DNA of 24,937 nucleotides from Promethearchaeota archaeon Loki_b31 (GTDB lineage Archaea > Asgardarchaeota > Lokiarchaeia > Sigyniarchaeales > SOKP01): assembly GCA_005222975.1 (NCBI GenBank), contig NJBI01000051.1:1-24937 (forward strand), given 5' to 3'. Of this stretch, positions 5,229 through 17,741 are shown piece by piece. Position 1 is the stretch's first letter. Every line of letters begins with the position of its first letter. The position numbers were made by a program, and so were the translations under genes. The notes beneath the pieces were generated by a model, which was not told the origin of the DNA, made no database searches, and was given only the letters and a program-made list of their open reading frames with translations.

Positions 5229-5528
5229 CTATTTCAACATTTCTTTTCCTTCGTCGCACCATTTACTTAATCTTTCTTCGGAAACTCCTTTGATTAAGGG
5301 TGCTAGTTCTCCTGGATTTTCTTTAATGAGTTCTTCAACACAACTTACTCCAAGTTCCTCTAGTTTTTTAGCAGCAGCAGGCCCCAAACCTGTTAAAGAG
5401 GTCAATTTTGTCTTTTCAAATTTTAACTTTTCTTTCTTCTCTTTCTTTGCGAGTGATAATGCTACTTTTCTACTTTTGGTTTGAAAGGCGTTCTTTTCTT
5501 TTCTTTGAACACATAAGGCTTCTTCTTT
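5229..5528 (-). CDS. Helix-hairpin-helix domain reading frame (HHH_5/DUF4332-like), in the -1 frame relative to L13e; probably the C-terminal part of an L13e-HhH fusion
   Basis: Absent from the ORF track. Manual translation gives ...KVALSLAKKEKKEKLKFEKTKLTSLTGLGPAAAKKLEELGVSCVEELIKENPGELAPLIKGVSEERLSKWCDEGKEMLK*, with the HhH motif LTGLGPAAAKKL. The frame is open from 5528 and overlaps the L13e 3' end. Confidence 0.8.
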   Translation of the reverse strand, partial: KEEALCVQRKEKNAFQTKSRKVALSLAKKEKKEKLKFEKTKLTSLTGLGPAAAKKLEELGVSCVEELIKENPGELAPLIKGVSEERLSKWCDEGKEMLK

Positions 5529-5749
5529 TTAACTTTCTTGCTAACTGGTTTTAATTTTTTTAGCTGTTCAACATTAAGCTCGTGCTTAGATCTCCTAAAA
5601 TAATCAACATTTATGTTTAAAGCTCTTAATAATTCAGGTGTTTTTCCAGCTTCTTTTATTTCTGACAAGGAAAACCCTTTAGCTTCACGTTTATGAGCGT
5701 CTTTTGCGGGAGAAATTACTACTGCCACTGTATTTTTATTATTTACCAT
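5462..5749 (-). CDS. rpl13e: 50S ribosomal protein L13e (eL13) with Lys-rich tail
   Basis: REAKGFSLSEIKEAG...LNINVDYFRRSKHELNVEQLK matches the eL13 consensus RxGRGFSLxELxxAG...VDxRRxSxHxxNVxxL. Confidence 0.88.
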   Translation of the reverse strand: MVNNKNTVAVVISPAKDAHKREAKGFSLSEIKEAGKTPELLRALNINVDYFRRSKHELNVEQLKKLKPVSKKVKKKKPYVFKEKKRTPFKPKVEK

Positions 5750-5904: not shown

Positions 5905-6546
5905 TTAAATTTTAATTATGTCTAATTGCTCTAATCTTTTTAAAACCTCGTTCACATAGTTCCGCGTTTTACCTAAATCTCTCGCGATTCTTAGCGGTGA
6001 GGCCTTACCAGTGCATTTTAAAGCAACTTGAAAATCATAGTCGTTAATCATTCCCATTGCCAAAATCTTTTCCATAACTTTTTTTACGACAAGCAATTTT
6101 GGAAAAACTTCTGCTATCGTTCCTCCACGGGTCAAATTTTCGATATCAGCAATAATCGTTTGAAATCTAGATTTCTCTGAAGTTGTTCTAAAGATTTTTA
6201 TATCTGATTGGTGTTTTTTCCAAAATCTGTTGGTGATTTTTTTATTTACTTCAATTAATTTATCTACATCATCATCTGCGTCAGAAATTGAACAAAAAAG
6301 AATTCTTGAAAGGGGATGATAAATAATAATAATGGTAGAGTTTTCAGATTCGACAATTCTAGTAATTTCGTTTCCATTTTTTCCCTTAACCATAGCAGCT
6401 TGGATTACATCAATAATATCATTTATTTCTTTGAAGAACCCCGGTATGACACCTTTAGGTATTTTATTTTCTTTTAGTTCTTTAAATGTAGCTTCCATCA
6501 GCACCACACCGCTATCGCTATCAATTAAAAAAATCTTATAGATAAT
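5905..6546 (-). CDS. Longin/roadblock-like domain protein with C-terminal helix-turn-helix; true start probably upstream of the called GTG at 6507
   Basis: The frame extends upstream as IIYKIFLIDSDSGVVLMEATF (longin-like first beta-hairpin). Internal IPGFFKEI and ILFCSISDADDD. C-terminal SPLRIARDLGKTRNYVNEVLKRLEQLDIIKI is a wHTH pattern. Confidence 0.7.
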   Translation of the reverse strand: MIYKIFLIDSDSGVVLMEATFKELKENKIPKGVIPGFFKEINDIIDVIQAAMVKGKNGNEITRIVESENSTIIIIYHPLSRILFCSISDADDDVDKLIEVNKKITNRFWKKHQSDIKIFRTTSEKSRFQTIIADIENLTRGGTIAEVFPKLLVVKKVMEKILAMGMINDYDFQVALKCTGKASPLRIARDLGKTRNYVNEVLKRLEQLDIIKI

Positions 6547-6704
6547 AGTATTTTCCCCTTAACATATTAACAAATTTTTTTAAAAAAATATACTAAATTA
6601 GTAAAAATTCTTTCTTAATAATCTATTTCTTTAGTAAGAATATCATTAAAAATAAAAATAGATAATTTTATACTCTTTATAATAATTCAAAAAAGCAAAT
6701 AGAT

Positions 6705-7919
6705 ATGAAAACTCATAAAATAGCATTTTTATTGTTAACCTTTCTTTTTCCAATGAACTTAATGTCAATTGCTTCAACTGAAGGCATCTCTAATTACGAA
6801 GTTAGTCAAAGCGTTACATATCAAGTAGAACTTGACTATACCTTTACACATACTCAAATATCTCCGCAGACATATTATTTTAAAGTCGCACGATTAAACG
6901 ATCGCCAACCGAATTCGATGGTTACCCAATATTGTCCTCCATATCAAGAATCTAACTTGTTGTACAATTCAATAACGGGAACCGATTCTCTAATTATGGG
7001 TTCGCTAGATAAATTCAATAACACTTATGATTTATTTAACGCTACTCTAAATAGCGTTACTTCTGATACTATTACTTTAAGTCAAAAATATAAAGTAAAA
7101 CTTAGCGAGGTAACATTTGGTACTATCTTAGATTCAGACATCGGAAGTTATAATACTTCTGACGAAATGTTTGATTTATATTGCAACAATACGGAAGAAT
7201 ATTACGAGCGAGACGACCCCGATCTAATTGCTGCGTCAAATAGTATCGTTGATCCTAGTGATAATCCGCTCGAAAAGGCTCAAAAGATTAGCAGCTGGGT
7301 TTCAAATTATCTTACTTACTCTGAAAGCCTTCCTGCTTTAGAGAAAGGCGCATCTTGGGCGTACGACAATCAATTAGGTGATTGTAGCGAATATTCTACT
7401 TTAATGATTACTTTGTTGAGAATTCAAGGGATTCCAGCCAGAAAAGTATCCGGATATTTGATATCAGCAGATTCAAATCTTCAACCGGCAGTCGGGCAAG
7501 TCTTTCACTTTCAAGCTAGTTCAAGTGGAACTTCAAGCATTTTAGGCCATGCTTGGGTCGAGTACTATATTCCCGAAATTGGATGGATTGCTTGCGAACC
7601 ACAAAACCCAAACTACTACAAAAAAAGCGATTATCTAAGGTTAAATTTAAATATCGGCGCTTGGTTTTTTCTGCCGGGGGCATCACCAGGACATGATTAT
7701 ATTTCAGAGTTCCCACCCATTCCGTCACCAGTAGCATACGACCACGACGCTTACACTTTTAATTACGATGTAAAAATAACTGTATTAGAGACAAGTTTTA
7801 ATTCCTTAGATCTTCTAATTATTATAATAATTAGTTCTATATTAGGGGTTGTAATAATCGGGATAGCTCTGTTAATTAGATCAAGCAGAAAAAAGAGAAA
7901 AGAATATCTTACTCATTAA
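6705..7919 (+). CDS. Exported, C-terminally membrane-anchored transglutaminase-like (Cys protease fold) protein
   Basis: N-terminal signal peptide, GDCSEYS (catalytic Cys), GIPARKVSGY, HAWVEYY (His), GWIACEP, and C-terminal TM plus RKKRK. Confidence 0.9.
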   Translation: MKTHKIAFLLLTFLFPMNLMSIASTEGISNYEVSQSVTYQVELDYTFTHTQISPQTYYFKVARLNDRQPNSMVTQYCPPYQESNLLYNSITGTDSLIMGSLDKFNNTYDLFNATLNSVTSDTITLSQKYKVKLSEVTFGTILDSDIGSYNTSDEMFDLYCNNTEEYYERDDPDLIAASNSIVDPSDNPLEKAQKISSWVSNYLTYSESLPALEKGASWAYDNQLGDCSEYSTLMITLLRIQGIPARKVSGYLISADSNLQPAVGQVFHFQASSSGTSSILGHAWVEYYIPEIGWIACEPQNPNYYKKSDYLRLNLNIGAWFFLPGASPGHDYISEFPPIPSPVAYDHDAYTFNYDVKITVLETSFNSLDLLIIIIISSILGVVIIGIALLIRSSRKKRKEYLTH

Positions 7920-7928
7920 TTTTTTTTT
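7919..7928. terminator. Oligo-T tract between convergent genes (possible archaeal terminator)
   Basis: A T9 run follows the 7919 stop within a 19-nt convergent gap. Confidence 0.35.
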
Positions 7929-7938
7929 AATTAAGCTC

Positions 7939-9351
7939 TTATATATAAGTGTGAATTAAATCCTTAAGATTTTTAGAGAATTTTGGTAAATTCTTATCGA
8001 TTTTTTCCAGATTTAAATCTTTTTCCATAAAGAGTAACAAATATAGATTGTACTTTTCAACGGGGATCTTTTTAAATATTATTTTTTTAGATTTGTTTGT
8101 TATTCCTGAAGAAATTAAGAAATCTTGTTTTAGTAACTTAAATTCCTTAAAAGTCTTGTAGAGCGTCTGAAAATGCGGCGCCGAAATTTCAAAAACCTTT
8201 TCGGAAATGCCTGTTCTAGAAAAGTTTGACAAAATTATTCCGTTTTCATTGAGCAGAAGTATTGCGTCAGAATTTATTTTCTTAGCGAAATGCTTCAATT
8301 GGTTTTCGAATAACTCTCTATTTGGACTGAGTTGTGAAAGTCCGTAAGAGTAAGCAGATATCAAAGACCAGTGGTCAAAAATCGAGGTTTCAAAAATTTT
8401 AACGAAAAACCCTCCAGTAATCTTACTAATTTCTTCATTTAAAGTTTTTAGATTATTTTTAATTTCTTTTAACTTCTTTACATCAGGGTCGTATTTATTT
8501 AGACAAACGACGATCGGAGGAAATTCATCTAACTCTAGTAGGGAATCTATTATTTTTTTAAACATTTCTATTGATTCTGTAATCCTTTCGGAATCTTGAA
8601 CGTCTATAAAGTAAAAGAGTAAATCTACGTTATATAAGTAAATCTTGCGTTGTTCGAGAAATTTTTCGCGATATTGCTTTTGCCCGCCTAGATCCCAAAT
8701 TGATATAGTCGAGTTTTGTTCTTCAAATATCTTTTCTTCCGTTCTTGCTACTCCTTTAGTCGGTAACGCTTTAATAATCTCAGAATATCGCTTTTTAACC
8801 GCCAGAAGAAAAACTGTTTTACCTACCTTGTCTAAACCGGTAAATAAAATTTTAATTTGTCGTTTTAAAGAAAAAGGGTCTTTTATTTCACTTGTAAATT
8901 CTAACAATTCTTCTCTTAATTCATTGATGATAACTTCATTTTCTTCTATAGATTTTGCTAATTGAACTTTTGAGGCTGCACTATCGATAATTACTCTTAA
9001 ATATTTCATGTTTTCATAGAAAAAAACCCTGTCTTCCTCGTTTATTAACACAGTTACTGTAGCCGCTTTAGCATTTCCTCTTGCTTCGGGATCATAAATT
9101 AGAAAAAAGTAAGTTAATCCATTAAGTTTTAAATCAGGAAAGGGTAATATTCCAAAATAGTTTATTTCTTCTGTAGATGTACTATTTTGATACACTGAAT
9201 CGCCCATTAATAAGCTAATCGTTTTCATTGCAATTAATAATCGCGAAGATTCGTCCATATTACTTGGCCAATATATCCTTGGAGTTGGACCATCGTCGTC
9301 AAACACACTTAAAACAATTGACTTTATGATCTCCGTTTTTGGTTTCGACAT
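7939..9351 (-). CDS. uDENN/longin-like + Arf/Rag-like small GTPase + roadblock-like fusion protein (470 aa)
   Basis: G1 GLDKVGKT, G2 PTKG, G3 WDLGGQ, G4 NKYD, G5 ETSIFD. N-terminal SIVLSVFDDDGPTPRIYWP. C-terminal DAILLLNENGIILS is roadblock-like. Confidence 0.88.
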   Translation of the reverse strand: MSKPKTEIIKSIVLSVFDDDGPTPRIYWPSNMDESSRLLIAMKTISLLMGDSVYQNSTSTEEINYFGILPFPDLKLNGLTYFFLIYDPEARGNAKAATVTVLINEEDRVFFYENMKYLRVIIDSAASKVQLAKSIEENEVIINELREELLEFTSEIKDPFSLKRQIKILFTGLDKVGKTVFLLAVKKRYSEIIKALPTKGVARTEEKIFEEQNSTISIWDLGGQKQYREKFLEQRKIYLYNVDLLFYFIDVQDSERITESIEMFKKIIDSLLELDEFPPIVVCLNKYDPDVKKLKEIKNNLKTLNEEISKITGGFFVKIFETSIFDHWSLISAYSYGLSQLSPNRELFENQLKHFAKKINSDAILLLNENGIILSNFSRTGISEKVFEISAPHFQTLYKTFKEFKLLKQDFLISSGITNKSKKIIFKKIPVEKYNLYLLLFMEKDLNLEKIDKNLPKFSKNLKDLIHTYI

Positions 9352-9683
9352 AATTCTTTGAAGCTTTTTCGATTATCATCAATATTTAAAAGATTTTAGG
9401 CAAATTAAGGCTACTATTAAATCAAAAGATAAATATTTATTTTTCCTAATTCTTCTAAATCGATTTAAAATAATTTCTATTCTAATATATCAAAAAAGAA
9501 TCCTCTATTAAATGTTTTCAAGATTAACAATAATTTTTCTATAACATACCTTATTCTTAAAAGCTGAGAACCTTAAATAAAAAAAAAATTGTTTTTAACA
9601 AGATTTAATAAAAGATAAATAAAAATTTTTTAAAATAATTACTTTCTTTTAATAATTATTATTTAGACAATTAACTTTTTATT

Positions 9684-10109
9684 ATGTTTGAAAATAAGAT
9701 CATTCATTCCTTACCAGAAGTGTTATACAAGGATAAAGAATCTGGAATAGTAAAAAAAAAAAAGTTTAAACCTATCCGTATATATAATTCGTTACGAAAG
9801 GAAACCGAACTTTCAGAACAAGACGCTGAAAAGATAACTCTTGATGTTTTTCGTTTTATAACCTCATCAAATCTTAAAATTCTTACAGCACCCCTCATAA
9901 GAGAGCTTGTTAGTTATTCTTTATTAAGATTTGGATTTGAAATTGCCCGCCTACAGAATACAAGAATTGGATTTCCTTATAACGATTTAAAGGATAAAAT
10001 ATCTGAATGTAACAATATTCCTGAATTAAAAGATTTTATTTATACTTGGGTTATAGATGAATTCAATGAAGTTAAAAAATTAATCGAGACTTCAAACATT
10101 TCTGAATAA
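9684..10109 (+). CDS. Stand-alone ATP-cone domain protein (resembles the N-terminal cone of archaeal anaerobic RNR NrdD)
   Basis: FKPIRIYNSLRKETELSEQDAEKIT...LKILTAPLIRELVSYSLLRFGFEIARLQNTRIGFPYND. The ORF ends at 141 aa with no catalytic domain. Confidence 0.8.
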   Translation: MFENKIIHSLPEVLYKDKESGIVKKKKFKPIRIYNSLRKETELSEQDAEKITLDVFRFITSSNLKILTAPLIRELVSYSLLRFGFEIARLQNTRIGFPYNDLKDKISECNNIPELKDFIYTWVIDEFNEVKKLIETSNISE

Positions 10110-10272
10110 TATCTCACATTTTTTTTATAAATTTAAAAGCTCCAATTAGCTTTATTTGTCAGATTATTTGTAAACTTATCATCTTCAGCGAGAACATTAA
10201 TTTAATCAGAAATTAATTCTGTTTTTAGTAAAACTTTTTGTTATGAGAAAAGTAGAGATTATTAGATGGTAT

Positions 10273-10509
10273 CTATGGAGTTTTTAATTTATTTATTATT
10301 GTATAGATAATTGAAACTACTAGATAAGTTGGAATTACAAATATAGCAATCAAAAAGAAAAAAGGCTCGTCTCCACCGATCGTCGCATTAAAATAATCAG
10401 AAAAGATAGCATAAACAATATTATGTAGAATAACAGAAGCAATCCAGGCTATAATAATTATTGCTACTTTTTTCCAACTTAATAAAAACCATTTATCAAA
10501 ATTATTCAT
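10273..10509 (-). CDS. Small two-TM membrane protein
   Basis: 78 aa with two hydrophobic helices flanking LHN and EPFFF motifs. Confidence 0.75.
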   Translation of the reverse strand: MNNFDKWFLLSWKKVAIIIIAWIASVILHNIVYAIFSDYFNATIGGDEPFFFLIAIFVIPTYLVVSIIYTIINKLKTP

Positions 10510-10656
10510 TTTTTATACATAATAATCAATCAAATTATTTTTTTAAATTTATGTTTTATTTATCCTATTTTATACCACTTTCTTTACGACACGACACTTT
10601 GATCATTATATCATTACTCTCCTTTCATTATTAAAAGCATCAACTTAATTTGCATT

Positions 10657-11454
10657 ATGTCTAGGGTTTATTCTTCGCCGTTGATAAAGCATTTTTTCTT
10701 AGAGATTTACAACTTATTAAAAGACACGGATTCAGCTGTAACCGAAATATGGTTTGAAATATCAGAAATTGAATTTTTCAAAAATTTTAGCGATTTTGAA
10801 CTCCGCGATTTTTTAGATAAGTTTGATTTTATCTCAATTCAGAAAGGAAACTATGTTCATTACATAGTAGTAAATAAAATCGTGTTTATTACGAGATGTC
10901 TTCAGTTTTTAGAGTTAGACGTTAATCACCTTTCATTTTTATTAAACAGCGACGGTTTTGAAGCTTTAATCAAAGAGATTTTATCTCAAAACAATTATAA
11001 AACAACCAAAAATTTTAGGTTTTCAGATAAATCTGATCTCAAATACGAAACATCTCAAAAAAGGTATGAGATCGATGTAATTGGCATTTATCAAAGTTAT
11101 ATATTGGTAATCGATGCTAAACAGTGGAAACGTAAGGACTCTTACAGCGCAATGAATAAAGCGGCAAATTTACAATATCAACGAGTAATTGCTTTGAAAA
11201 AGAATCCTGAAATTCTATCAAATTTAATACAGAACCTATTAGGAATGAAATTTAACTTTCGAAAAAAGTTACCATTTATCTTAATTCCCGTTATGGTTAC
11301 GTTAGAATCAAATTGGGTCAGAATTAACGAAAATTACATTCCATTAGTAGGAATAGATAATTTTAATTCGTTTTTGCAGGAATTAAGAATCAATTTACAA
11401 CATTTTAAAACTATCGAAGTTGATAAAATTTTCGTTCAAAAGCAGTTAGTATAA
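10657..11454 (+). CDS. PD-(D/E)xK nuclease, Mrr-cat/NERD-like restriction endonuclease family
   Basis: FEALIKEILSQNNY (helix E), YEIDVIG (D) and VIDAKQW (D-x-K). Confidence 0.8.
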   Translation: MSRVYSSPLIKHFFLEIYNLLKDTDSAVTEIWFEISEIEFFKNFSDFELRDFLDKFDFISIQKGNYVHYIVVNKIVFITRCLQFLELDVNHLSFLLNSDGFEALIKEILSQNNYKTTKNFRFSDKSDLKYETSQKRYEIDVIGIYQSYILVIDAKQWKRKDSYSAMNKAANLQYQRVIALKKNPEILSNLIQNLLGMKFNFRKKLPFILIPVMVTLESNWVRINENYIPLVGIDNFNSFLQELRINLQHFKTIEVDKIFVQKQLV

Positions 11455-11472
11455 GATTAGGATAGTGTATCC

Positions 11473-12483
11473 CTATTTTAATAATCCTAAATATTGTTTT
11501 ACTTGTTTTTTTACTATACTAACAGCAAAATATATTATTCCCGATTTAACTCGAGGATGTGAAAGAATTATTAAAATCATGTCATCTCCAAATGATTTTT
11601 TTGAACCAATGGGCGCGAGGTCTAAAACTCCATCAGTTCCCCTTATTGAAATGTTCAGCAAGGTTCCAGCGCTTAAGCCCTTGATTATATCATCTCCAAT
11701 CATGGATAAATTCTGACCAATTGTTGCAAATAAAGTTTCTGAAATTCGTGATGAAATTGCTGAAGCGAGAATCGTACCATCACCCTTAATAATTGCGGAG
11801 GCTTCAATATGTAGGTCCAGCTTCAATAAATCCTTTAAAATTTCGTTCATGCTGGAAGGAGGAATTTTTTCTTCTGTTTTCTCTTGAATAGCTTGCTTTT
11901 GTTTTTCAATAGATTCTAATGGTTTAACTGTTATTTTTTTAGATAAAAATGACAATACCTTTGACATATCTTCTTCTAGTTGCTTTTGCTTTAAAAGCAC
12001 AGATTCCTTTTCAGACGGGGATACGGTTGATTTTTGAGCGAGCCGTGATTTCGTATCAGCACGTTTCCTAACTTGTCGGTGTGGTCCGAAAACTCCTTTC
12101 TCTTCAATAATTGATCCTTTATAAGGTTGAGGCGTAATTTCTTTTAAAATGTCTGTATCTTCTTCTTCATCTTCCAGTTCGCTTTCTACGAACTCTTCGA
12201 CGTCTTCGTATTCGAAGGGGGTTTGGGTTTCAATAAGATCCTCCTCAATTTCGTTTAATTTTTCGGGTTTTGGGATCTCTTGTAGGTCTAAATGATCTGG
12301 TTTAGAAACTTTTTTCTTATCAGGAATTCTTTTCTGAGGTTTAGCTTCTTTTTTCTCCTTTTTACTAGGAGCCATTTTAAGTCTTGGAGTTCTGCGGGAA
12401 GTGGGGAGTAGAGCGCCGCATTTTCTACAAATACGACCGCTCTCCTCGTTATTAGTCGCACCACAATTAGAACAAATGATCAT
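11473..12483 (-). CDS. Zinc-ribbon + low-complexity linker + roadblock/LC7 (MglB/LAMTOR-like) domain protein
   Basis: N-terminal CSNCG...CRKCG, basic then acidic linker, C-terminal IEASAIIKGDGTILASA...ISIRGTDGVL...VKSGII roadblock pattern. Confidence 0.85.
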   Translation of the reverse strand: MIICSNCGATNNEESGRICRKCGALLPTSRRTPRLKMAPSKKEKKEAKPQKRIPDKKKVSKPDHLDLQEIPKPEKLNEIEEDLIETQTPFEYEDVEEFVESELEDEEEDTDILKEITPQPYKGSIIEEKGVFGPHRQVRKRADTKSRLAQKSTVSPSEKESVLLKQKQLEEDMSKVLSFLSKKITVKPLESIEKQKQAIQEKTEEKIPPSSMNEILKDLLKLDLHIEASAIIKGDGTILASAISSRISETLFATIGQNLSMIGDDIIKGLSAGTLLNISIRGTDGVLDLAPIGSKKSFGDDMILIILSHPRVKSGIIYFAVSIVKKQVKQYLGLLK

Positions 12484-12599
12484 TGGGATTATCTCTTTTA
12501 TCAGTTTTTAAAATCAGAAACAATAAGTTTTTATCTATATATAAGTATAAAAATTCAATTTTATTAATGTTAGCTAAAGTAAATTAAAAATAAAAGGAG

Positions 12600-13571
12600 T
12601 TAACTATATAGGATCTCTTTTAATAAATTAGCAAAACAATCAAAATCTTCTTTGTTAATATTTGGATCTTGTTTAAGCATAAGTAAATAATACGGAGAAG
12701 AGTCATCTTTTAAAGAAAGTTGCTTGAAAACGAAATTCTTTCCATACCTTTGCACAACCATGTGATTTTCCTCTTCTTGGCGGCTAGGTTGAGCTTTTGT
12801 AAAAATAAACGAATCGTTAAGGGTCAAAAAATAGGGAGTTGAAGCGCTGAGGAGATTCTTTGTTTCCTCGTCTTTGTAATAACTACCTACGATAAGACTA
12901 TTGTCGTCTAGTAAAACGACACCTTCAGAATAGGTCTTTTTGCCAAATTCTACAATTGTTTTTTCAATTAATTCCGATTTTGGGTATAAGTTTAAAAGAA
13001 TTTCAGACATGGCTTTAATGATACTGGGTAAATCGTAGATTGAAGTATTGTAATAAAAGATTTTCTTATAATCTACCACATTTTTTATTTTTTCTTTTAA
13101 TTCTATTTCAAGGGCCTTCATTTCGTTTAAAGCGTTTCGTCTTAACGCTGGATCATATTTATGGAAAAATACATAGATGCTCGGCTCTATTTCCAGCTTA
13201 TTAAATTGCACTACTACATCTTTAAAATAGCTGATAGCCTCTGGTATTCTTGCGCGATTTTGAACATCTATTACATAAACTGCAATCTCAGTGTCGTCGA
13301 AATACTTTCCGGGATTTTTTAAATAAGCTATTCTATAGCTAAATTGACCTCCAAGGTCCCATTCAGCTATTTCTCGCCCTAGAAATTCAAATATCCTTCT
13401 TTGGGCACCTCTAGTTGGCTTCAGAAACGCGATTTTCGAAAATTCCCTCTGTATTGCATAAATAATTGTTGTCTTGCCTGCGTTATCAAGGCCCGTAAAT
13501 AAAATTTTACTAGGTGACGCTATAGCTTCCTTTTTTACTTTTTTATCTTTTGATAAATATTGAATTGTCAA
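12600..13571 (-). CDS. Arf/Rag-like small GTPase with C-terminal roadblock-like domain (323 aa)
   Basis: G1 GLDNAGKT, G2 PTRG, G3 WDLGGQ, G4 HKYD, G5 TSIYD. C-terminal EGVVLLDDNSLIVGS. TTG start preceded by GTGAGG. Confidence 0.9.
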   Translation of the reverse strand: MTIQYLSKDKKVKKEAIASPSKILFTGLDNAGKTTIIYAIQREFSKIAFLKPTRGAQRRIFEFLGREIAEWDLGGQFSYRIAYLKNPGKYFDDTEIAVYVIDVQNRARIPEAISYFKDVVVQFNKLEIEPSIYVFFHKYDPALRRNALNEMKALEIELKEKIKNVVDYKKIFYYNTSIYDLPSIIKAMSEILLNLYPKSELIEKTIVEFGKKTYSEGVVLLDDNSLIVGSYYKDEETKNLLSASTPYFLTLNDSFIFTKAQPSRQEEENHMVVQRYGKNFVFKQLSLKDDSSPYYLLMLKQDPNINKEDFDCFANLLKEILYS

Positions 13572-13578
13572 TTGAATT

Positions 13579-13584
13579 CCTCAC
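13579..13584 (-). promoter_or_regulatory. Putative ribosome-binding site (GTGAGG) supporting the TTG start at 13571
   Basis: cctcac on the + strand, 7 nt from the TTG. Confidence 0.55.
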
Positions 13585-13720
13585 AACCATATTCTTATGT
13601 AAGATAATATATCAAACATTCTTATAAAATTATCCTTAACTTAAATATTAAAATGTTTAGCATATTTTTTCATTAATAAGGGATATTCTGAAAATATGGT
13701 AATAGTTTTTTTGCTTTTTA

Positions 13721-13990
13721 TTAAAATTCAAATCCCTTTCCGAAAAAATCTGTAATATCGAAATAGAAAGTAATTTCCCGACCATCTTCTAACTTCAATT
13801 CCAAGACATCGTACATTCTTCCACTTTTGTCTTGTAAACTCTGCCTAATTAATTGATAATTACCGAACTTTTTTCGAACTTCAATGTATTCCTGTTCTAC
13901 GCCTTCGATATTACTGCAATCTGAGATTTTTATAGCTTCTTTAAAAGAAAAGCCATCTCCTCCACTAATTTTTACCATTCTTAACACCAT
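13721..13990 (-). CDS. Small hypothetical protein (89 aa)
   Basis: Clean ORF co-oriented with its neighbours, with conserved-looking GGDGFSFKEAI and YDVLELKLEDG...YFDITDFFG. Function not recognised. Confidence 0.75.
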   Translation of the reverse strand: MVLRMVKISGGDGFSFKEAIKISDCSNIEGVEQEYIEVRKKFGNYQLIRQSLQDKSGRMYDVLELKLEDGREITFYFDITDFFGKGFEF

Positions 13991-14033
13991 AAAAATAACT
14001 TATCAAATACTTTATTCACGATCTTAACTTTTT

Positions 14034-14591
14034 TTAAAACTCATTTGGCATGCCATACTTAGTATTAGGTCCTTTTTCAAAAAGTTGGTTTAATTTATCG
14101 ACCGCTTCTTGAGCTGTTTTTGCTCCATATATCGTATCACTCCTTCTATCGTCGATTTTTTTGCCTGCCATTTTAGAGGACCATCCATCTAAACCAGTTA
14201 GTGCGATAATTGGTTTCTCGTATATCCAGGCAAAACATATTTCTGATAGGGTGCCTGCTTTCCCCGCTATCGCGACTACTGCGTCACCACTAAGCACCAC
14301 AACTATATTTCGCGCTTGAGAAAACGGAACTGGGATAACAACATCAACATATTTATTTGCTAAACTTTTATCTTTAAAAGGAATTATTCCTATCGTGAAT
14401 CCCCCTTCTTGTTTCGCTCCTTTGCAAACCGCTTCCATAACTCCAGAAAGCCCTCCGCACGCAACAGCAAAATTGTTTCTAGCGAGCAATCCTCCCAATT
14501 CATTAGCTAATTTCTCCGTTTTTGAATCGATTTGGCTAGTGCCAATTACAGAAACAGTTCCCTTAAATTTATTTTTGAAATTAAAACTCAT
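14034..14591 (-). CDS. LOG/SLOG family Rossmann-fold nucleotide-binding protein (TIGR00725-type)
   Basis: VSVIG, CGGLSGVMEAVCKGAKQEGGFTIGIIP, ARNIVVVLSGD and GKAGTLSEI. Confidence 0.9.
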   Translation of the reverse strand: MSFNFKNKFKGTVSVIGTSQIDSKTEKLANELGGLLARNNFAVACGGLSGVMEAVCKGAKQEGGFTIGIIPFKDKSLANKYVDVVIPVPFSQARNIVVVLSGDAVVAIAGKAGTLSEICFAWIYEKPIIALTGLDGWSSKMAGKKIDDRRSDTIYGAKTAQEAVDKLNQLFEKGPNTKYGMPNEF

Positions 14592-14786
14592 TGTATTTCA
14601 ATATCTTATTTTTTTTATAATTCCTAATATTGTTCGAATATTTTTATTTGTTTAGAAAGTTAGAAAGAAAAGTATCCAATAAATTATTTATTTTCAAAAT
14701 GAACTTATTGATCATCAAATGTTGCAGAATGCTCACTAGATGATCGAAAGCAAAAACCTAAATGTACGGAATCGTAATATTATTAT

Positions 14787-14984
14787 ATGGAAACAAAACA
14801 TAGATTAAAACCTAGTATTTCTATAGCCCCGCATCGAAAGGATTCTTCAATTTACTGCCCAGCTTGTGGACATATCATGGAACAAATTCTTCATACACCT
14901 AAAAATATAAAATAAATTTATCAATGTCCTAGATGTAATACCTTTATTCCGGAACAGATTTATGGACTGTCAGATCTTAAATAA
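14787..14984 (+). pseudogene. Small zinc-ribbon gene interrupted by an in-frame TAA
   Basis: Manual translation METKHRLKPSISIAPHRKDSSIYCPACGHIMEQILHTPKNIK*IYQCPRCNTFIPEQIYGLSDLK*. The two CxxC knuckles are in one frame, separated by TAA at 14913-14915. Confidence 0.6.
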
Positions 14985-15185
14985 AGGCTAATAACGAGAA
15001 TTATCGTTTAATGTGGGATATATAGCGTTTCTCGTAGCTTATTTCTTATCGATTAGATTAAACCTTAAGGACAACATTCTCAACGACATTAAGCATAAAA
15101 GTAAGTGATGTTTAAGAACCAGTTTTATTTGGATTATATCTTAAGAATTCGGGAATACAACCCCCACAGTCAGGATATTAAATCT

Positions 15186-16142
15186 TTAATACGCAATAAC
15201 ATCTAAAGATTCTTTACCATTATTTATTTCTAATCCCGCTTTTTTAATAATTTTTCCAATCAAATTTGCTGACATATCATGGTCTTTAAAAATCTTGATT
15301 ATTTGTTGAGATTTTTCTTCAGGTGCAGTTAAAATATATGAAGTGGTTAAAAACATTTTAATGTAAGTCTCCAAATTATAGCCCTTCTCTATTAATTTTG
15401 GAGGAATTACAATCCTTTCAATATTTATATTCGCGCCAACTTCAGAATATTGCATTAGTTGTAAAATAGTTCCAAACACACCTCCGTTAGATATATCCTT
15501 TGACGAATTGGCAAGATGTTCTTGGGCAATAACATTCATAGATTTTCTTTTATTCAAAACCATTTCAGAATCCTTAAACGTAACTGTATCCCAATGTAAA
15601 ACATTTGCTTTTCCTATTTTTCCGTCAAAATCAACTGCTAAAATGATGTTATCGTTTGGTTGTGCATTTTTTGCAGATATATAATCTTCTTCTTTGATTT
15701 CTCCTATTAATGATGTACTTAGTTCGTAATGCTTTTTCATATTCGTGTGACCCCGAATTATAGGAACATTAAATTTTTTCGAGCCAGCGCACACACCTTC
15801 AATAATTCTTTGCCCAATCTTTTGTTCTTTAAAGGAAATTATCAAGCTTGCCGCTAGTGGCGTCCCTCCACACGCATAAATATCATCTACTCCAACCAAG
15901 ATGGAACTAAAGCCAGCGCCAAATGGAAACTTCTCTATAAAAGTAGTTTTAATCCGATCGGTTGTTACTAACGTGTACATTCCATTATCGTTCTTAATTG
16001 CGGCAGAATCTTCCCCTATGTCTGAAAAAATACGAGAACTTTTAAAAGAATTTAAATGTATGAATTGAACTACGGGATCTATGCTTTTTTTTTCAATTAT
16101 GTTGCTATTATTCTTAATACATTCAGCAATTTTTTTTAACAT
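15186..16142 (-). CDS. AIR synthase/PurM-like superfamily protein, methanogenesis marker 2/sll0787-like
   Basis: IGEDSAAI, SILVGVDDIYACGGTP, IIRGHTN and KDISNGGVFGT...SEVGA. Confidence 0.8.
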   Translation of the reverse strand: MLKKIAECIKNNSNIIEKKSIDPVVQFIHLNSFKSSRIFSDIGEDSAAIKNDNGMYTLVTTDRIKTTFIEKFPFGAGFSSILVGVDDIYACGGTPLAASLIISFKEQKIGQRIIEGVCAGSKKFNVPIIRGHTNMKKHYELSTSLIGEIKEEDYISAKNAQPNDNIILAVDFDGKIGKANVLHWDTVTFKDSEMVLNKRKSMNVIAQEHLANSSKDISNGGVFGTILQLMQYSEVGANINIERIVIPPKLIEKGYNLETYIKMFLTTSYILTAPEEKSQQIIKIFKDHDMSANLIGKIIKKAGLEINNGKESLDVIAY

Positions 16143-16226
16143 TAATGTTCTAGTAAAAAATCTATTATTATTAAATAATTAAGTTTCCTACCTTTATTAT
16201 TAAAAAATAATATTAAAGAAAGTTCA

Positions 16227-17741
16227 ATGTTGGATGATTTAATTGAGTCTTCTATAGTCAAAGGACTAGCGTTTTGCGCCTACGACAAATTAGGTCCTCA
16301 ACCAATTTATATGTTCCCTAAACCAATTAAGGGGAAAGATTTTGAATCTGAAAATAAAGAAAAGAGAGTTGGAAAAGGACTTATAATGTCTTTCACAGAT
16401 TATATGCAAATCTCAATTAAAACCTTAAGCCTTCTCCTCGGGGACGGGACATTATTTAATAAAGACTCCGCTTTGTTAAAGCAATACCAATACTTTGGAG
16501 TTATCCCATTTCCAGATTTTCATTTAACAGCACTTACATTTTTTCATTTTGCTGAAGTAAAATTTGATGAAGCTCCTTTAGCAACTGCTTTCTGCATACT
16601 CGTTGACGAGAATCAACGAGGCTTTTTGTATAACAACATCAATCGACTAAAAAATATTGTTATCGATTTCTTTAACCAGTTTGATAAAATAATTACTGAA
16701 GAGTTCAAACCACAAGAGCAAGTAAAACGTTATTTTGAGAGCCTTATAAAAAAAATAATAACAATTGAAAAAACTCCCGCAACGCCTATTACATCGCAAA
16801 GAAAAATGAAAATTTTATTCGCGGGTCTTGACGATAGCGGGAAGACGAGCTTTTTGCTTTCAATAGATAGAAAATTTTCAAAATTGATTGGATTAAAACC
16901 TACGAGGGGGGCAGATGTAAGTTCAATAGAAGCACTAGGGGCTACAATTTTTCTATGGGACTTAGGTGGTCAAAAAGCATACCACGAAAGATATCTTAAT
17001 AAAGCTCAGATCTATTTATTCGAAGCAGATTTGCTTTTTTATTTCATTGATTTAAAAAACAAAGCCCGGTTTGAAGAAAGTATTGAATACCTTAAAAATA
17101 TTAAAAAAGCATTAGCTCAACTAGAACAGGCAACTCCAATTATCTACATTTTATCGAAAGGAGACCCCGACATAATTGACTCTAAAGTCATTAAAAATAA
17201 CTTAAAAGTAATAAAAAATGAATTAGCTAAAATCTCTTTAAAAAAAAGCCCTGAAATTTACATAACAAGCGTGTTTCAAATTTTTACTATTTTAAGAGCC
17301 TTTTCTTCAGGTATAGCCAAATTAAGTCCAAACAGAGACTTGATCGAACATAACCTTCACACATTTTCATCAAAAACTGACGCGTGTTTGGCGCTCTTGT
17401 TAAGTAACGATGGATTAGTATTAGCTGAATTTTATACTCCTGAGGCAATGGAAATCACAAAAATGCAAAAATCTGAGGACTTATTAAACGTATTTGAGGT
17501 TGTAGCTCCCCAATTTGCCATGTTGTTTAAAATATTCTCAAAATATAAGGCTGCAGAGAAAGACGAAGCGATATTTAAAGTTTCAAACTCAGTTATTTTG
17601 TTTAAGAAAATTAAGGTGTTACATTACGATATGTTCATTCTTTTCTTATTAGACAACGAGAACACAAAAGAAAAAATTAACCAAAATATTCAAGATTTCC
17701 TTGTCCGTACACAAGATTTACTAATAAGGTATATCTCTTAA
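16227..17741 (+). CDS. uDENN/longin-like + Arf/Rag-like small GTPase + roadblock-like fusion protein (504 aa), paralogue of 7939..9351
   Basis: G1 GLDDSGKT, PTRG, WDLGGQ, variant G4 SKGD, G5 ITSVF. Shares KTxSLLxGD, YFGxxPFPD, KLSPNR and FExxAPxF blocks with 7939..9351. Confidence 0.88.
   Translation: MLDDLIESSIVKGLAFCAYDKLGPQPIYMFPKPIKGKDFESENKEKRVGKGLIMSFTDYMQISIKTLSLLLGDGTLFNKDSALLKQYQYFGVIPFPDFHLTALTFFHFAEVKFDEAPLATAFCILVDENQRGFLYNNINRLKNIVIDFFNQFDKIITEEFKPQEQVKRYFESLIKKIITIEKTPATPITSQRKMKILFAGLDDSGKTSFLLSIDRKFSKLIGLKPTRGADVSSIEALGATIFLWDLGGQKAYHERYLNKAQIYLFEADLLFYFIDLKNKARFEESIEYLKNIKKALAQLEQATPIIYILSKGDPDIIDSKVIKNNLKVIKNELAKISLKKSPEIYITSVFQIFTILRAFSSGIAKLSPNRDLIEHNLHTFSSKTDACLALLLSNDGLVLAEFYTPEAMEITKMQKSEDLLNVFEVVAPQFAMLFKIFSKYKAAEKDEAIFKVSNSVILFKKIKVLHYDMFILFLLDNENTKEKINQNIQDFLVRTQDLLIRYIS

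Follow-up and report, generated by a model that had tools for sequence, protein, structure and literature searches.

Rag-like GTPases in which a roadblock domain follows the G domain, with or without a longin domain in front of it, are known from Candidatus Prometheoarchaeum syntrophicum MK-D1 (Tran et al. 2024, PMC10933270); they agree with the proteins considered here in domain architecture and in their Rag/Arf-like G domain, and AlphaFold2 (AF2) predicts that they dimerize through their roadblocks. The Protein Data Bank (PDB) further holds LokiRagO (8yl2), a homotetrameric RagA-like GTPase from Lokiarchaeota, LokiRagM (8zla and 9m28) and a Loki longin (8yqg), and in the literature searched we found no paper on the LokiRagO or LokiRagM entries. 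Here we analyze a 24.9-kb stretch of DNA (24,937 nucleotides, hereafter the window) that makes up an entire contig, C15, of Promethearchaeota archaeon Loki_b31, whose 3.5-Mb genome comprises 99 contigs with ~31% G+C and whose close relatives in the public records are Promethearchaeota/Lokiarchaeota metagenome-assembled genomes from marine, cold-seep and subsurface sediments. The window carries two longin-GTPase-roadblock genes (G1 and G3), one GTPase-roadblock gene (G2), a Zn-ribbon-roadblock gene (ZnRB) and a gene for a longin domain joined to a winged helix-turn-helix (wHTH), which we call P5 (Table 1); every open reading frame (ORF) cited in a preliminary description of this DNA is present at its coordinates. 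This is a genuine, ancestral cluster made of known families; on balance we favor the view that it is a vertically inherited set of three Rag-family paralogues and two candidate partners lying in an unusually stable syntenic island of a Lokiarchaeial order. What is added here is the link between a folliculin-type longin and a Rag-like GTPase, together with the hypothesis of an asymmetric pair, the components themselves being known.

Compared with LokiRagO, G2 is alike over nearly its whole length, whereas G1 and G3 carry an extra N-terminal longin. With the RagA/B-RagC/D and Gtr1-Gtr2 pairs the locus shares the G domain and C-terminal roadblock (Z 20-22 over ~260-290 residues), an HKxD-type G4 motif in G2 and in the G1 of other families, and the retention of two diverged paralogues close together; identity to Rag/Gtr is nevertheless ~16-22%, the longin is fused in cis here, and neither a Ragulator/EGO anchor nor TOR was recognized. 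Like FLCN-FNIP, NPRL2-NPRL3 and C9orf72-SMCR8, which are pairs of longin GTPase-activating proteins (GAPs), G1 and G3 have the longin fold and a GP motif before strand β2, with a conserved arginine in the neighboring loop of one partner only (PMC12290439) and with matches of G1-type N-domains to Pfam Folliculin that are below the cutoff in all but one case, but they have neither DENN nor NPRL C-terminal domains, and their longin is fused to the candidate client GTPase; GP moreover occurs in both G1 and G3, as in C9orf72 and SMCR8 and unlike FNIP and NPRL3. The succession of G2 and a roadblock gene, as well as the MglB-like roadblock of G1, recalls MglA-MglB of bacteria and archaea, in which a roadblock GAP is encoded beside a small GTPase; the locus differs from that system in that G2 is Rag-like with a roadblock of its own and in that ZnRB has a Zn ribbon and a long charged linker.

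Most eukaryotic signature genes of Asgard archaea lie outside conserved neighborhoods; the exceptions include an operon of a LAMTOR1-like roadblock, a DENN protein and a Rab-like GTPase, which has been read as FLCN/Ragulator-like (Liu et al., 10.1101/2020.10.19.343400). That operon and the present locus both unite, in a conserved Asgard neighborhood, a small GTPase with a roadblock and a regulator of the longin family, but the former has a non-Rag GTPase and a DENN protein, whereas in the latter the GTPases are Rag-like, DENN is absent and the genes form no operon. In MK-D1, operons that combine a small-GTPase gene with a roadblock or longin gene are not the rule, and the accessible part of the MK-D1 paper describes neither a locus of three paralogues nor a folliculin-type signature nor an arginine asymmetry (PMC10933270). 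A survey from 2025 documented the GP motif and the arginine in Asgard longins and left open whether the client GTPase is Arf-like or Rag-like (PMC12290439). The literature that we searched yielded no description of the three-paralogue locus, of its conservation across families or of the arginine asymmetry between G1 and G3.

The Rag-like GTPases and their candidate partners

The three genes that had been described preliminarily as GTPase-roadblock genes bear out that assignment, since Gtr1_RagA (PF04670) is the best Pfam family of each, well over its cutoff (E 1.5e-24 for G1, 9.5e-26 for G2 and 2.9e-21 for G3), and their C-termini are roadblocks. A profile of G1 and G3 matches RagA at E 1e-24 and Gtr1 at E 1e-20. 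In an AF2 model of G1, computed from 24 orthologues and paralogues (predicted local distance difference test, pLDDT, 75), structural alignment of residues ~165-468 gives Z 23.7 to LokiRagO (8yl2) and Z 20-22 over 250-290 residues to RagC, RagA, Gtr1 and Gtr2, and residues 344-469 by themselves reach Z 15.5 to the C-terminal domain of RagC and Z 14.6 to MglB. In all three G domains the nucleotide-binding motifs (P-loop, switch-I Thr, DxxGQ and a G4/G5 pair) are intact; G4 reads NKYD in the G1 of the window, HKxD in the G1 of other families, SKGD in G3 (and in 32 of the 42 G3-type sequences) and HKYD, a Rag-like form, in G2, whose motifs are conserved in 70 sequences. The paralogy of G1 and G3 spans their full length (259 bits), the N-domain is confined within this genome to these two genes, and the C-domains of G1, G2 and G3 are one another's nearest relatives in it; this exclusivity and mutual closeness point to local duplication.

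The N-terminal domain of G1 is a longin, residues 4-158 of the model aligning with the crystallized Loki longin 8yqg at Z 19.1 (root-mean-square deviation, rmsd, 2.0 Å over 141 residues), and the same longin was matched by the N-domain profile at E 2.8e-6; no FLCN or NPRL2 chain was reached among the PDB sequences searched with that profile, only 8yqg. A GP motif is specific to the GAP longins FLCN, NPRL2, SMCR8 and C9orf72 and to one class of Asgard longins (PMC12290439). An alignment of 22 N-domains drawn from four families shows G21 in all of them and P22 in nearly all, GA being what one stand-alone longin has instead, and the dipeptide is present in 93 of 93 G1-type sequences that have the column and in 41 of 41 of the G3 type; strands at residues 9-18 and 21-28 of the G1 model place it in the loop that precedes β2. 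R91 and G92 are likewise invariant in the G1 type (94 of 94 sequences), whereas the β4-β5 loop of 42 G3-type sequences is variable and holds no conserved Arg.

The Pfam family Folliculin (PF11704) matches 12 of the 22 N-domains, no second family recurring, and it does so in all five G1 orthologues scanned singly, always from profile position 49 to ~100-110; four G3-type and two stand-alone longins that were scanned gave no match. The best match (E 2.6e-5, 24.5 bits) is the sole one above the curated cutoff of 23.3 bits, the window's own G1 scoring 18.1 bits (E 0.0025) and hence beneath it, and R91 falls inside the matching stretch in 12 of 12 G1 orthologues tested. The strand order of the longin sheet is 2-1-5-4-3, with the β1-β2 and β4-β5 loops side by side, so that R91 should, by topology, neighbor the GP loop. 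Human FLCN has a similar LARG around its catalytic R164, and NPRL2 has R78 in the equivalent loop, which is a lead and not a test. By its fold and its GP motif, the longin of G1 and G3 is of the kind found in folliculin, NPRL2 and SMCR8. No C-terminal DENN or NPRL-specific domain is present in G1, where GTPase and roadblock come directly after the longin.

To place the comparative data, we call the window's family f1, other families f2 to f4, and two genera outside f1 g2 and g5. In f4, G1 occurs without G3, and a stand-alone homologue of the G1 longin that lacks the Arg lies 1.5-2 kb from G1, which fits a model of asymmetric dimers. The simplest account is that a longin-GTPase-roadblock gene was duplicated locally, G1 keeping and G3 losing the arginine; the two would then form an asymmetric pair, dimerizing through their roadblocks, as RagA/RagC and Gtr1/Gtr2 do, through their longins, as in FLCN/FNIP and NPRL2/NPRL3, or through both, and G1 alone would supply R91 to stimulate GTP hydrolysis, which would make it a GTPase with a built-in GAP platform. 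An asymmetric G1-G3 dimer is favored by the presence of the Arg in only one paralogue, this being the pattern of catalytic/non-catalytic longin pairs combined with that of RagA/RagC.

Several further observations concern the relatives of these longins. The stand-alone longins of f4 (L026:9350-9859 and L028:8366-8905, both without Arg) are 170-180 residues long; a DUF1464 gene lies between the stand-alone longin and G1, and a gene for a pterin-binding protein comes directly after. In the window, the gene that follows G3 is that of the pterin-dependent MtrH. Fusions of ~345 residues, in which a longin bearing the GP motif and an Arg-Gly-Gly loop is joined to a Rab-like GTPase and a roadblock is lacking, were found at L126:792-1829 and L127:1088-2131, which lie on contig C91 of genome G012, 10-13 kb on either side of the block; frames resembling this fusion occur near the block in many same-family genomes, and a search of the window's genome with the G1 longin as query did not find one. 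The G1 orthologue of g5 (L023:7797-9161, genome G024) keeps GP and ARG while its switch-I and G3 sequence motifs are degenerate (PNEQN and WDYKPK), and judged by these motifs it may be a pseudo-GTPase.

G2 matches the crystallized LokiRagO chain over residues 10-320, through to the C-terminus (phmmer E 6.5e-91). The Zn-ribbon and roadblock domains originally read into ZnRB were both recovered: cysteines C4, C7, C19 and C22 are invariant (Zn_ribbon_3, E 2.4e-4), the family profile matches two Robl_LC7 proteins of solved structure, 7f8m (E 1.9e-5) and 7yh1 (E 8e-4), Pfam Robl_LC7 itself gives E 0.0085, and jackhmmer ties ZnRB to a further 28 roadblock genes in this genome, Pfam confirming the four that were checked. 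ZnRB lies downstream of G2 on the same strand, and the two are adjacent in every same-family locus that spans both as well as in G024, a genome of another family. G2 would be a homo-oligomer like its crystallized relative, with ZnRB as a possible MglB-like partner. A complex prediction for G2 with residues 155-336 of ZnRB returned "no answer" (score 0.00 in two runs) and is evidence neither for nor against an interaction. Functional coupling within the pairs G1-G3 and G2-ZnRB is, in our judgment, likely.

For P5, whose gene is separated from G1 by a single gene and which was taken in the preliminary description as a longin-like/HTH protein, the domains proved correct and the start had to be revised. 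Its AF2 model (pLDDT 82.6) has a longin followed by a winged HTH; residues 1-145 align best with longins of the TRAPP, SNARE and adaptor kinds (Z 12-13), synbindin, VAMP7 and Sec22b among them, longin or roadblock proteins fill nearly all of the 50 top rows of the structural search, and Pfam HTH_24 gives E 0.002. The P5 longin has no GP motif, and P5 does not combine an NPRL-type longin with the NPRL C-terminal domain; its Foldseek matches to NPRL2/3 chains, at E 3e-4, have TM scores of just 0.17-0.22 and rmsd of 14-16 Å. Orthologues start ~13 residues earlier, with a conserved β-hairpin that the window encodes in frame at 6507-6546 on the minus strand, after a TAA and a GGGG stretch and with no ATG, GTG or TTG, the first conserved residues being encoded by ATT ATC; the true start is therefore probably, on these sequence grounds, a non-canonical ATT/ATC at ~6546 rather than the GTG at 6507. 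Several close relatives are likewise without a standard start, and their gene calls have been shortened to 162-197 residues. We regard P5 as a candidate adaptor or transcriptional output that could link the switch to DNA.

Clustering and conservation of the locus

Iterated hidden Markov model searches of the ORFs found 69 small-GTPase genes and 29 roadblock genes in this genome, ~10-13 of the former being Rag-like. Finding three of any of the 69 within 8.3 kb has a p of 0.47, and GTPase density alone is thus unremarkable; when 10-13 Rag-like genes are placed randomly, however, three within 8.3 kb have a simulated p of 0.0017-0.004, so that a local excess exists for the Rag-like genes and not for GTPases at large. 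The clustering of the Rag-like subfamily is not chance. Co-location of unrelated GTPase genes by accident might have been expected where Loki genomes are so rich in GTPases, this one having 69, with two other three-gene clusters among them, but the three proteins are the closest relatives of one another in the C-domain, G1 and G3 in the N-domain also, the Rag-like subfamily clusters at p 0.002-0.004 and the arrangement recurs in more than 100 genomes; the clustering statistics and the synteny together rule this explanation out, and we attach hardly any probability to it. A second Rag-like neighborhood, with GTPases of 402 and 347 residues and three other genes, lies at 56-68 kb of contig C13 in the window's genome (G000) and is conserved in another family (L024, G020:C109), where two Rag-like genes are adjacent.

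Linkage in related genomes, one of the checks named in the preliminary description, is conserved across the family and in part across the order. Among 31 relatives, most genomes of the genus have all three GTPase orthologues in a span of 9-15 kb, and 80 further same-family loci, with 65-95% G1 identity, have an identical gene order over the whole 25 kb, from a membrane protein at one end to archaeosortase H (ArtH; NCBIfam ArtH, E 3e-96) at the other, save that a transglutaminase-core gene (TGase) is sometimes lost. The distance from G1 to G3 is 7-12 kb in most f1 genomes that have both on one contig, six further genera included. Given that the collinearity within f1 covers unrelated genes too, synteny within the family says nothing specific.

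More informative are the loci outside f1. In G030, a genome of another family with 29-49% identity, eleven genes stand in the order unk164 (a 164-residue protein), L13e, P5, TGase, G1, NERD, G2, SLOG, AIRS, G3 and ArtH. Three genomes of g2 keep the sub-blocks [G2 .. SLOG-AIRS<>G3 .. ArtH] and [NERD-G1-x-TGase-MTase-CxxCxxCC], where MTase is a methyltransferase gene, and g5 keeps [G2-ZnRB-G1-TGase-P5-L13e-unk164-MTase]. Adjacency of G1 and TGase is kept in f1, f2 and f3, though lost in some f1 genomes; NERD adjoins G1 in f1 and f2; and f1 shares the G3<>AIRS-SLOG arrangement with three f2 genera. All 42 block genes of the other-family loci map to C15, whereas none of the 28 flanking or inserted genes that have a homologue in the window's genome does so, all of them mapping to other contigs. 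Against a background obtained by comparing 400 kb of the closed g2 genome with that of the window, in which 26% of adjacent gene pairs stay neighbors, only three of 131 blocks reach four genes: an operon of ten genes on a single strand, one block of four genes and [SLOG-AIRS-G3-ArtH]. Conserved blocks of three to four genes, [TGase-MTase-CxxCxxCC] among them, come about every 40 kb.

The principal competitor of an ancestral cluster with coupled partners is synteny that is merely frozen: the GTPases would be old local duplicates in a slowly rearranging region, acting as independent switches with partners elsewhere, and their roadblock and longin neighbors would be coincidental. It is possible, if on the doubtful side. 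In its favor, the 80 collinear genomes keep unrelated genes along with the rest of the contig, the density of GTPases of any kind is not significant, one of 29 roadblock genes would by our estimate fall in a given 12-kb stretch ~10% of the time, the cluster splits in g2 and g5 with its genes retained, and distance correlations did not single out the GTPases. In the latter (mirror-tree partial correlations over 22 loci and 10 genes), G1-G2 gave 0.44, G2-G3 0.33 and G1-G3 0.28, and the highest pair was G3 with the unrelated 164-residue protein (0.49), so that the measure is not discriminating. Frozen synteny accounts poorly, on the other hand, for an Arg asymmetry between G1 and G3 that holds across four families in the pattern of obligate catalytic/non-catalytic longin pairs, for the Arg-less stand-alone longin beside G1 in f4, for block flanks that are not conserved between families, and for the G2-ZnRB adjacency, which agrees with a genome-wide enrichment of roadblock genes within 1 kb of a small-GTPase gene (6 of 25, G2-ZnRB among them, against 1.3 expected).

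Several of our results weigh against the ancestral cluster of paralogues and partners that we favor, and they deserve to be set out together. The collinear block includes the unrelated genes for ribosomal L13e, MtrH, archaeosortase H, a methyltransferase and a CxxCxxCC protein, so that synteny is in part the mark of a frozen region and not of selection for co-function; conservation of the locus is in the upper tail of the background, not unique, and it is region-wide rather than limited to signaling genes. The two sub-blocks of the closed g2 genome are 80 kb apart, which splits G1 from G2 and G3, and in g5 the GTPases are divided among different contigs. The genes are spread over both strands and several transcription units, and G2, ZnRB and the AIRS<>G3 spacer each have a conserved AT-rich promoter-like block of their own (upstream of the gene in the first two cases). 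The relative of G2 is, by its PDB title, a homotetramer and not a heterodimer. Finally, the equivalence that we propose of R91 to FLCN R164 and NPRL2 R78 draws on fold topology and on the FLCN and NPRL2 sequences noted above rather than on a superposition.

Neighboring genes and transcription units

The features of the window are collected in Table 1. The TGase has hydrophobic segments at its N- and C-terminus and is probably membrane-anchored and extracytoplasmic; it is lost from the locus in about a sixth of the same-family genomes (L062, L065, L066, L070, L072, L097, L113, L115-L120 and L123), and in g2 a gene for an Arf-like small GTPase of 206 residues lies between G1 and TGase (L020:6900-7520 and L031:4836-5456), whose homologue in the window's genome (G000) lies at 31-35 kb of contig C92, beside a second small GTPase and a roadblock-family protein of 338 residues. 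The AIRS protein matches NCBIfam TIGR03267 at E 2.5e-68, under the cutoff of that family. Genes for ~600 residues take the place of the 141-residue ATP-cone-like gene in other species of the genus, and the L13e frame (5462-5749, minus strand), of 95 residues in the window, corresponds to open frames of ~200 residues at the same site in relatives. The spacer between SLOG and AIRS (14592-15185, 594 bp), which ranges from 20 bp to 3.3 kb in relatives, contains no ORF, Rfam match or tRNA, and Rfam and tRNA scans of the whole window gave no matches. The contig end (21300-24936), outside the conserved block, holds a fragment of an ISL3-family transposase, a HisKA-receiver protein and a histidine kinase.

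Table 1. Positions of the Rag-like GTPase genes, their motifs, candidate partners and neighbors in the window
Feature	Coordinates	Strand	Remarks
G1, longin-GTPase-roadblock Rag-like GTPase	7939..9351	-	470 aa; longin ~1-158, G domain ~165-340, roadblock ~344-469
G1 GP motif (G21-P22), loop ahead of longin strand β2	9286..9291	-	
G1 ARG motif (A90-R91-G92), β4-β5 loop, candidate arginine finger	9076..9084	-	
G3, longin-GTPase-roadblock paralogue	16227..17741	+	504 aa; GP motif at 16293-16298
G2, GTPase-roadblock Rag-like GTPase, LokiRagO type	12600..13571	-	323 aa
ZnRB: Zn-ribbon, charged linker, roadblock	11473..12483	-	336 aa
P5, longin-winged-HTH protein	5905..6546	-	213 aa with the probable ATT/ATC start
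TGase, transglutaminase-core protein	6705..7919	+	Pfam Transglut_core E 6e-23
NERD-domain protein, conserved neighbor of G1	10657..11454	+	Pfam NERD E 7e-5
AIRS, AIR-synthase-related protein (methanogenesis-marker-2 / sll0787-like)	15186..16142	-	Pfam AIRS and AIRS_C
SLOG / LOG-like protein (TIGR00725 family)	14034..14591	-	Pfam LDcluster4 E 2.6e-41; TIGR00725 over cutoff
unk89, uncharacterized 89-aa protein encoded between SLOG and G2	13721..13990	-	in some relatives only
141-aa protein, divergent from G1	9684..10109	+	Pfam ATP-cone E 0.0026, under cutoff (weak)
Single-pass membrane protein, truncated by the contig end	2..1375	+	one transmembrane segment

P5 and TGase are divergent (158 nt between them), TGase and G1 convergent (19 nt), and NERD and ZnRB also convergent (18 nt); ZnRB, G2, unk89, SLOG and AIRS are co-oriented, with successive gaps of 116, 149, 43 and 594 nt, AIRS and G3 are divergent (84 nt), and G3 and MtrH converge with an overlap of 4 nt. 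For footprinting we aligned each intergenic region across 20-57 orthologous loci, and in these alignments no distinctive palindrome common to the regions was seen that might represent a shared operator. A GGTGA ribosome-binding site precedes G2, and, to judge from the aligned upstream sequences, G2 and ZnRB probably have separate promoters. The genes would be separate transcription units held together mainly by descent.

From linked genes to a possible switch

The preliminary description had gone further and suggested that these genes form one switch network, built from the same folds as Rag, Ragulator, GATOR1 and FLCN. The fold assignments and the linkage speak for a network; the unrelated genes of the block, the splits in other genera and the distribution over both strands and several units do not. 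As for the folds, Rag, roadblock and a GAP-type longin, in G1, were indeed found, whereas the window ORFs gave no DENN hit and P5 is not NPRL-like. Pfam scans of the window ORFs gave no DENN, DEPDC5-like or LAMTOR1-like component, none of which was searched for specifically. Nor could the longin-like domain attributed to the membrane protein at the start of the window be confirmed: its cytoplasmic part matches the longin-wHTH family with an hhalign probability of 6%, its Atlas neighbors are unnamed Promethearchaeota clusters, some with wHTH or V4R, and these matches decide neither for nor against a longin. A reading of the locus as an integrated Rag-Ragulator-GATOR1/FLCN system has only partial support.

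In its full form, that reading takes six proteins, the membrane protein included, as a single proto Rag-Ragulator-GATOR1/FLCN nutrient-sensing network comprising a sensor in the membrane, roadblocks as scaffold, heterodimers of Rag-like GTPases, longins as GAPs and an output in transcription. The locus does bring together within 12-17 kb all of the eukaryotic fold classes except DENN, DEPDC5 and LAMTOR1, it has a GAP-type longin with a conserved Arg, its linkage is conserved and, speculatively, the SLOG and AIR-synthase-like enzymes beside G3 could provide a small-molecule input. We nonetheless hold it to be improbable, for the membrane protein is collinear within f1 only and absent from the cross-family blocks, three f2 genera lack ZnRB at the locus and hence beside G2, operon structure is lacking amid unrelated genes, and Asgard archaea have no known TOR-like output (Liu et al., 10.1101/2020.10.19.343400). 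Barely less unlikely is the narrower proposal that G1 and G3 are an obligate asymmetric heterodimer merging, in two polypeptides, the Rag pair with a folliculin/GATOR1-type longin GAP pair of which only one member has the arginine, and constitute, together with the G2 oligomer, ZnRB and P5, a self-contained prokaryotic forerunner of the Rag-Ragulator-FLCN switch which would read a metabolic cue and act on transcription or the cell surface. Because the linkage is partly a property of the region, synteny alone is no proof of an archaeal nutrient-sensing pathway.

What the ancestral cluster of Rag-family paralogues and candidate partners does offer is a concrete and small set for experiment, namely G1, G3, G2, ZnRB and an R91 mutant. 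A longin with the GP motif and an invariant arginine is here fused to a Rag-like GTPase, and a paralogue devoid of that arginine is kept nearby across the order. By the Rosetta-stone argument, such a fusion would indicate that the partnership between Rag GTPases and longin GAPs predates eukaryotes.

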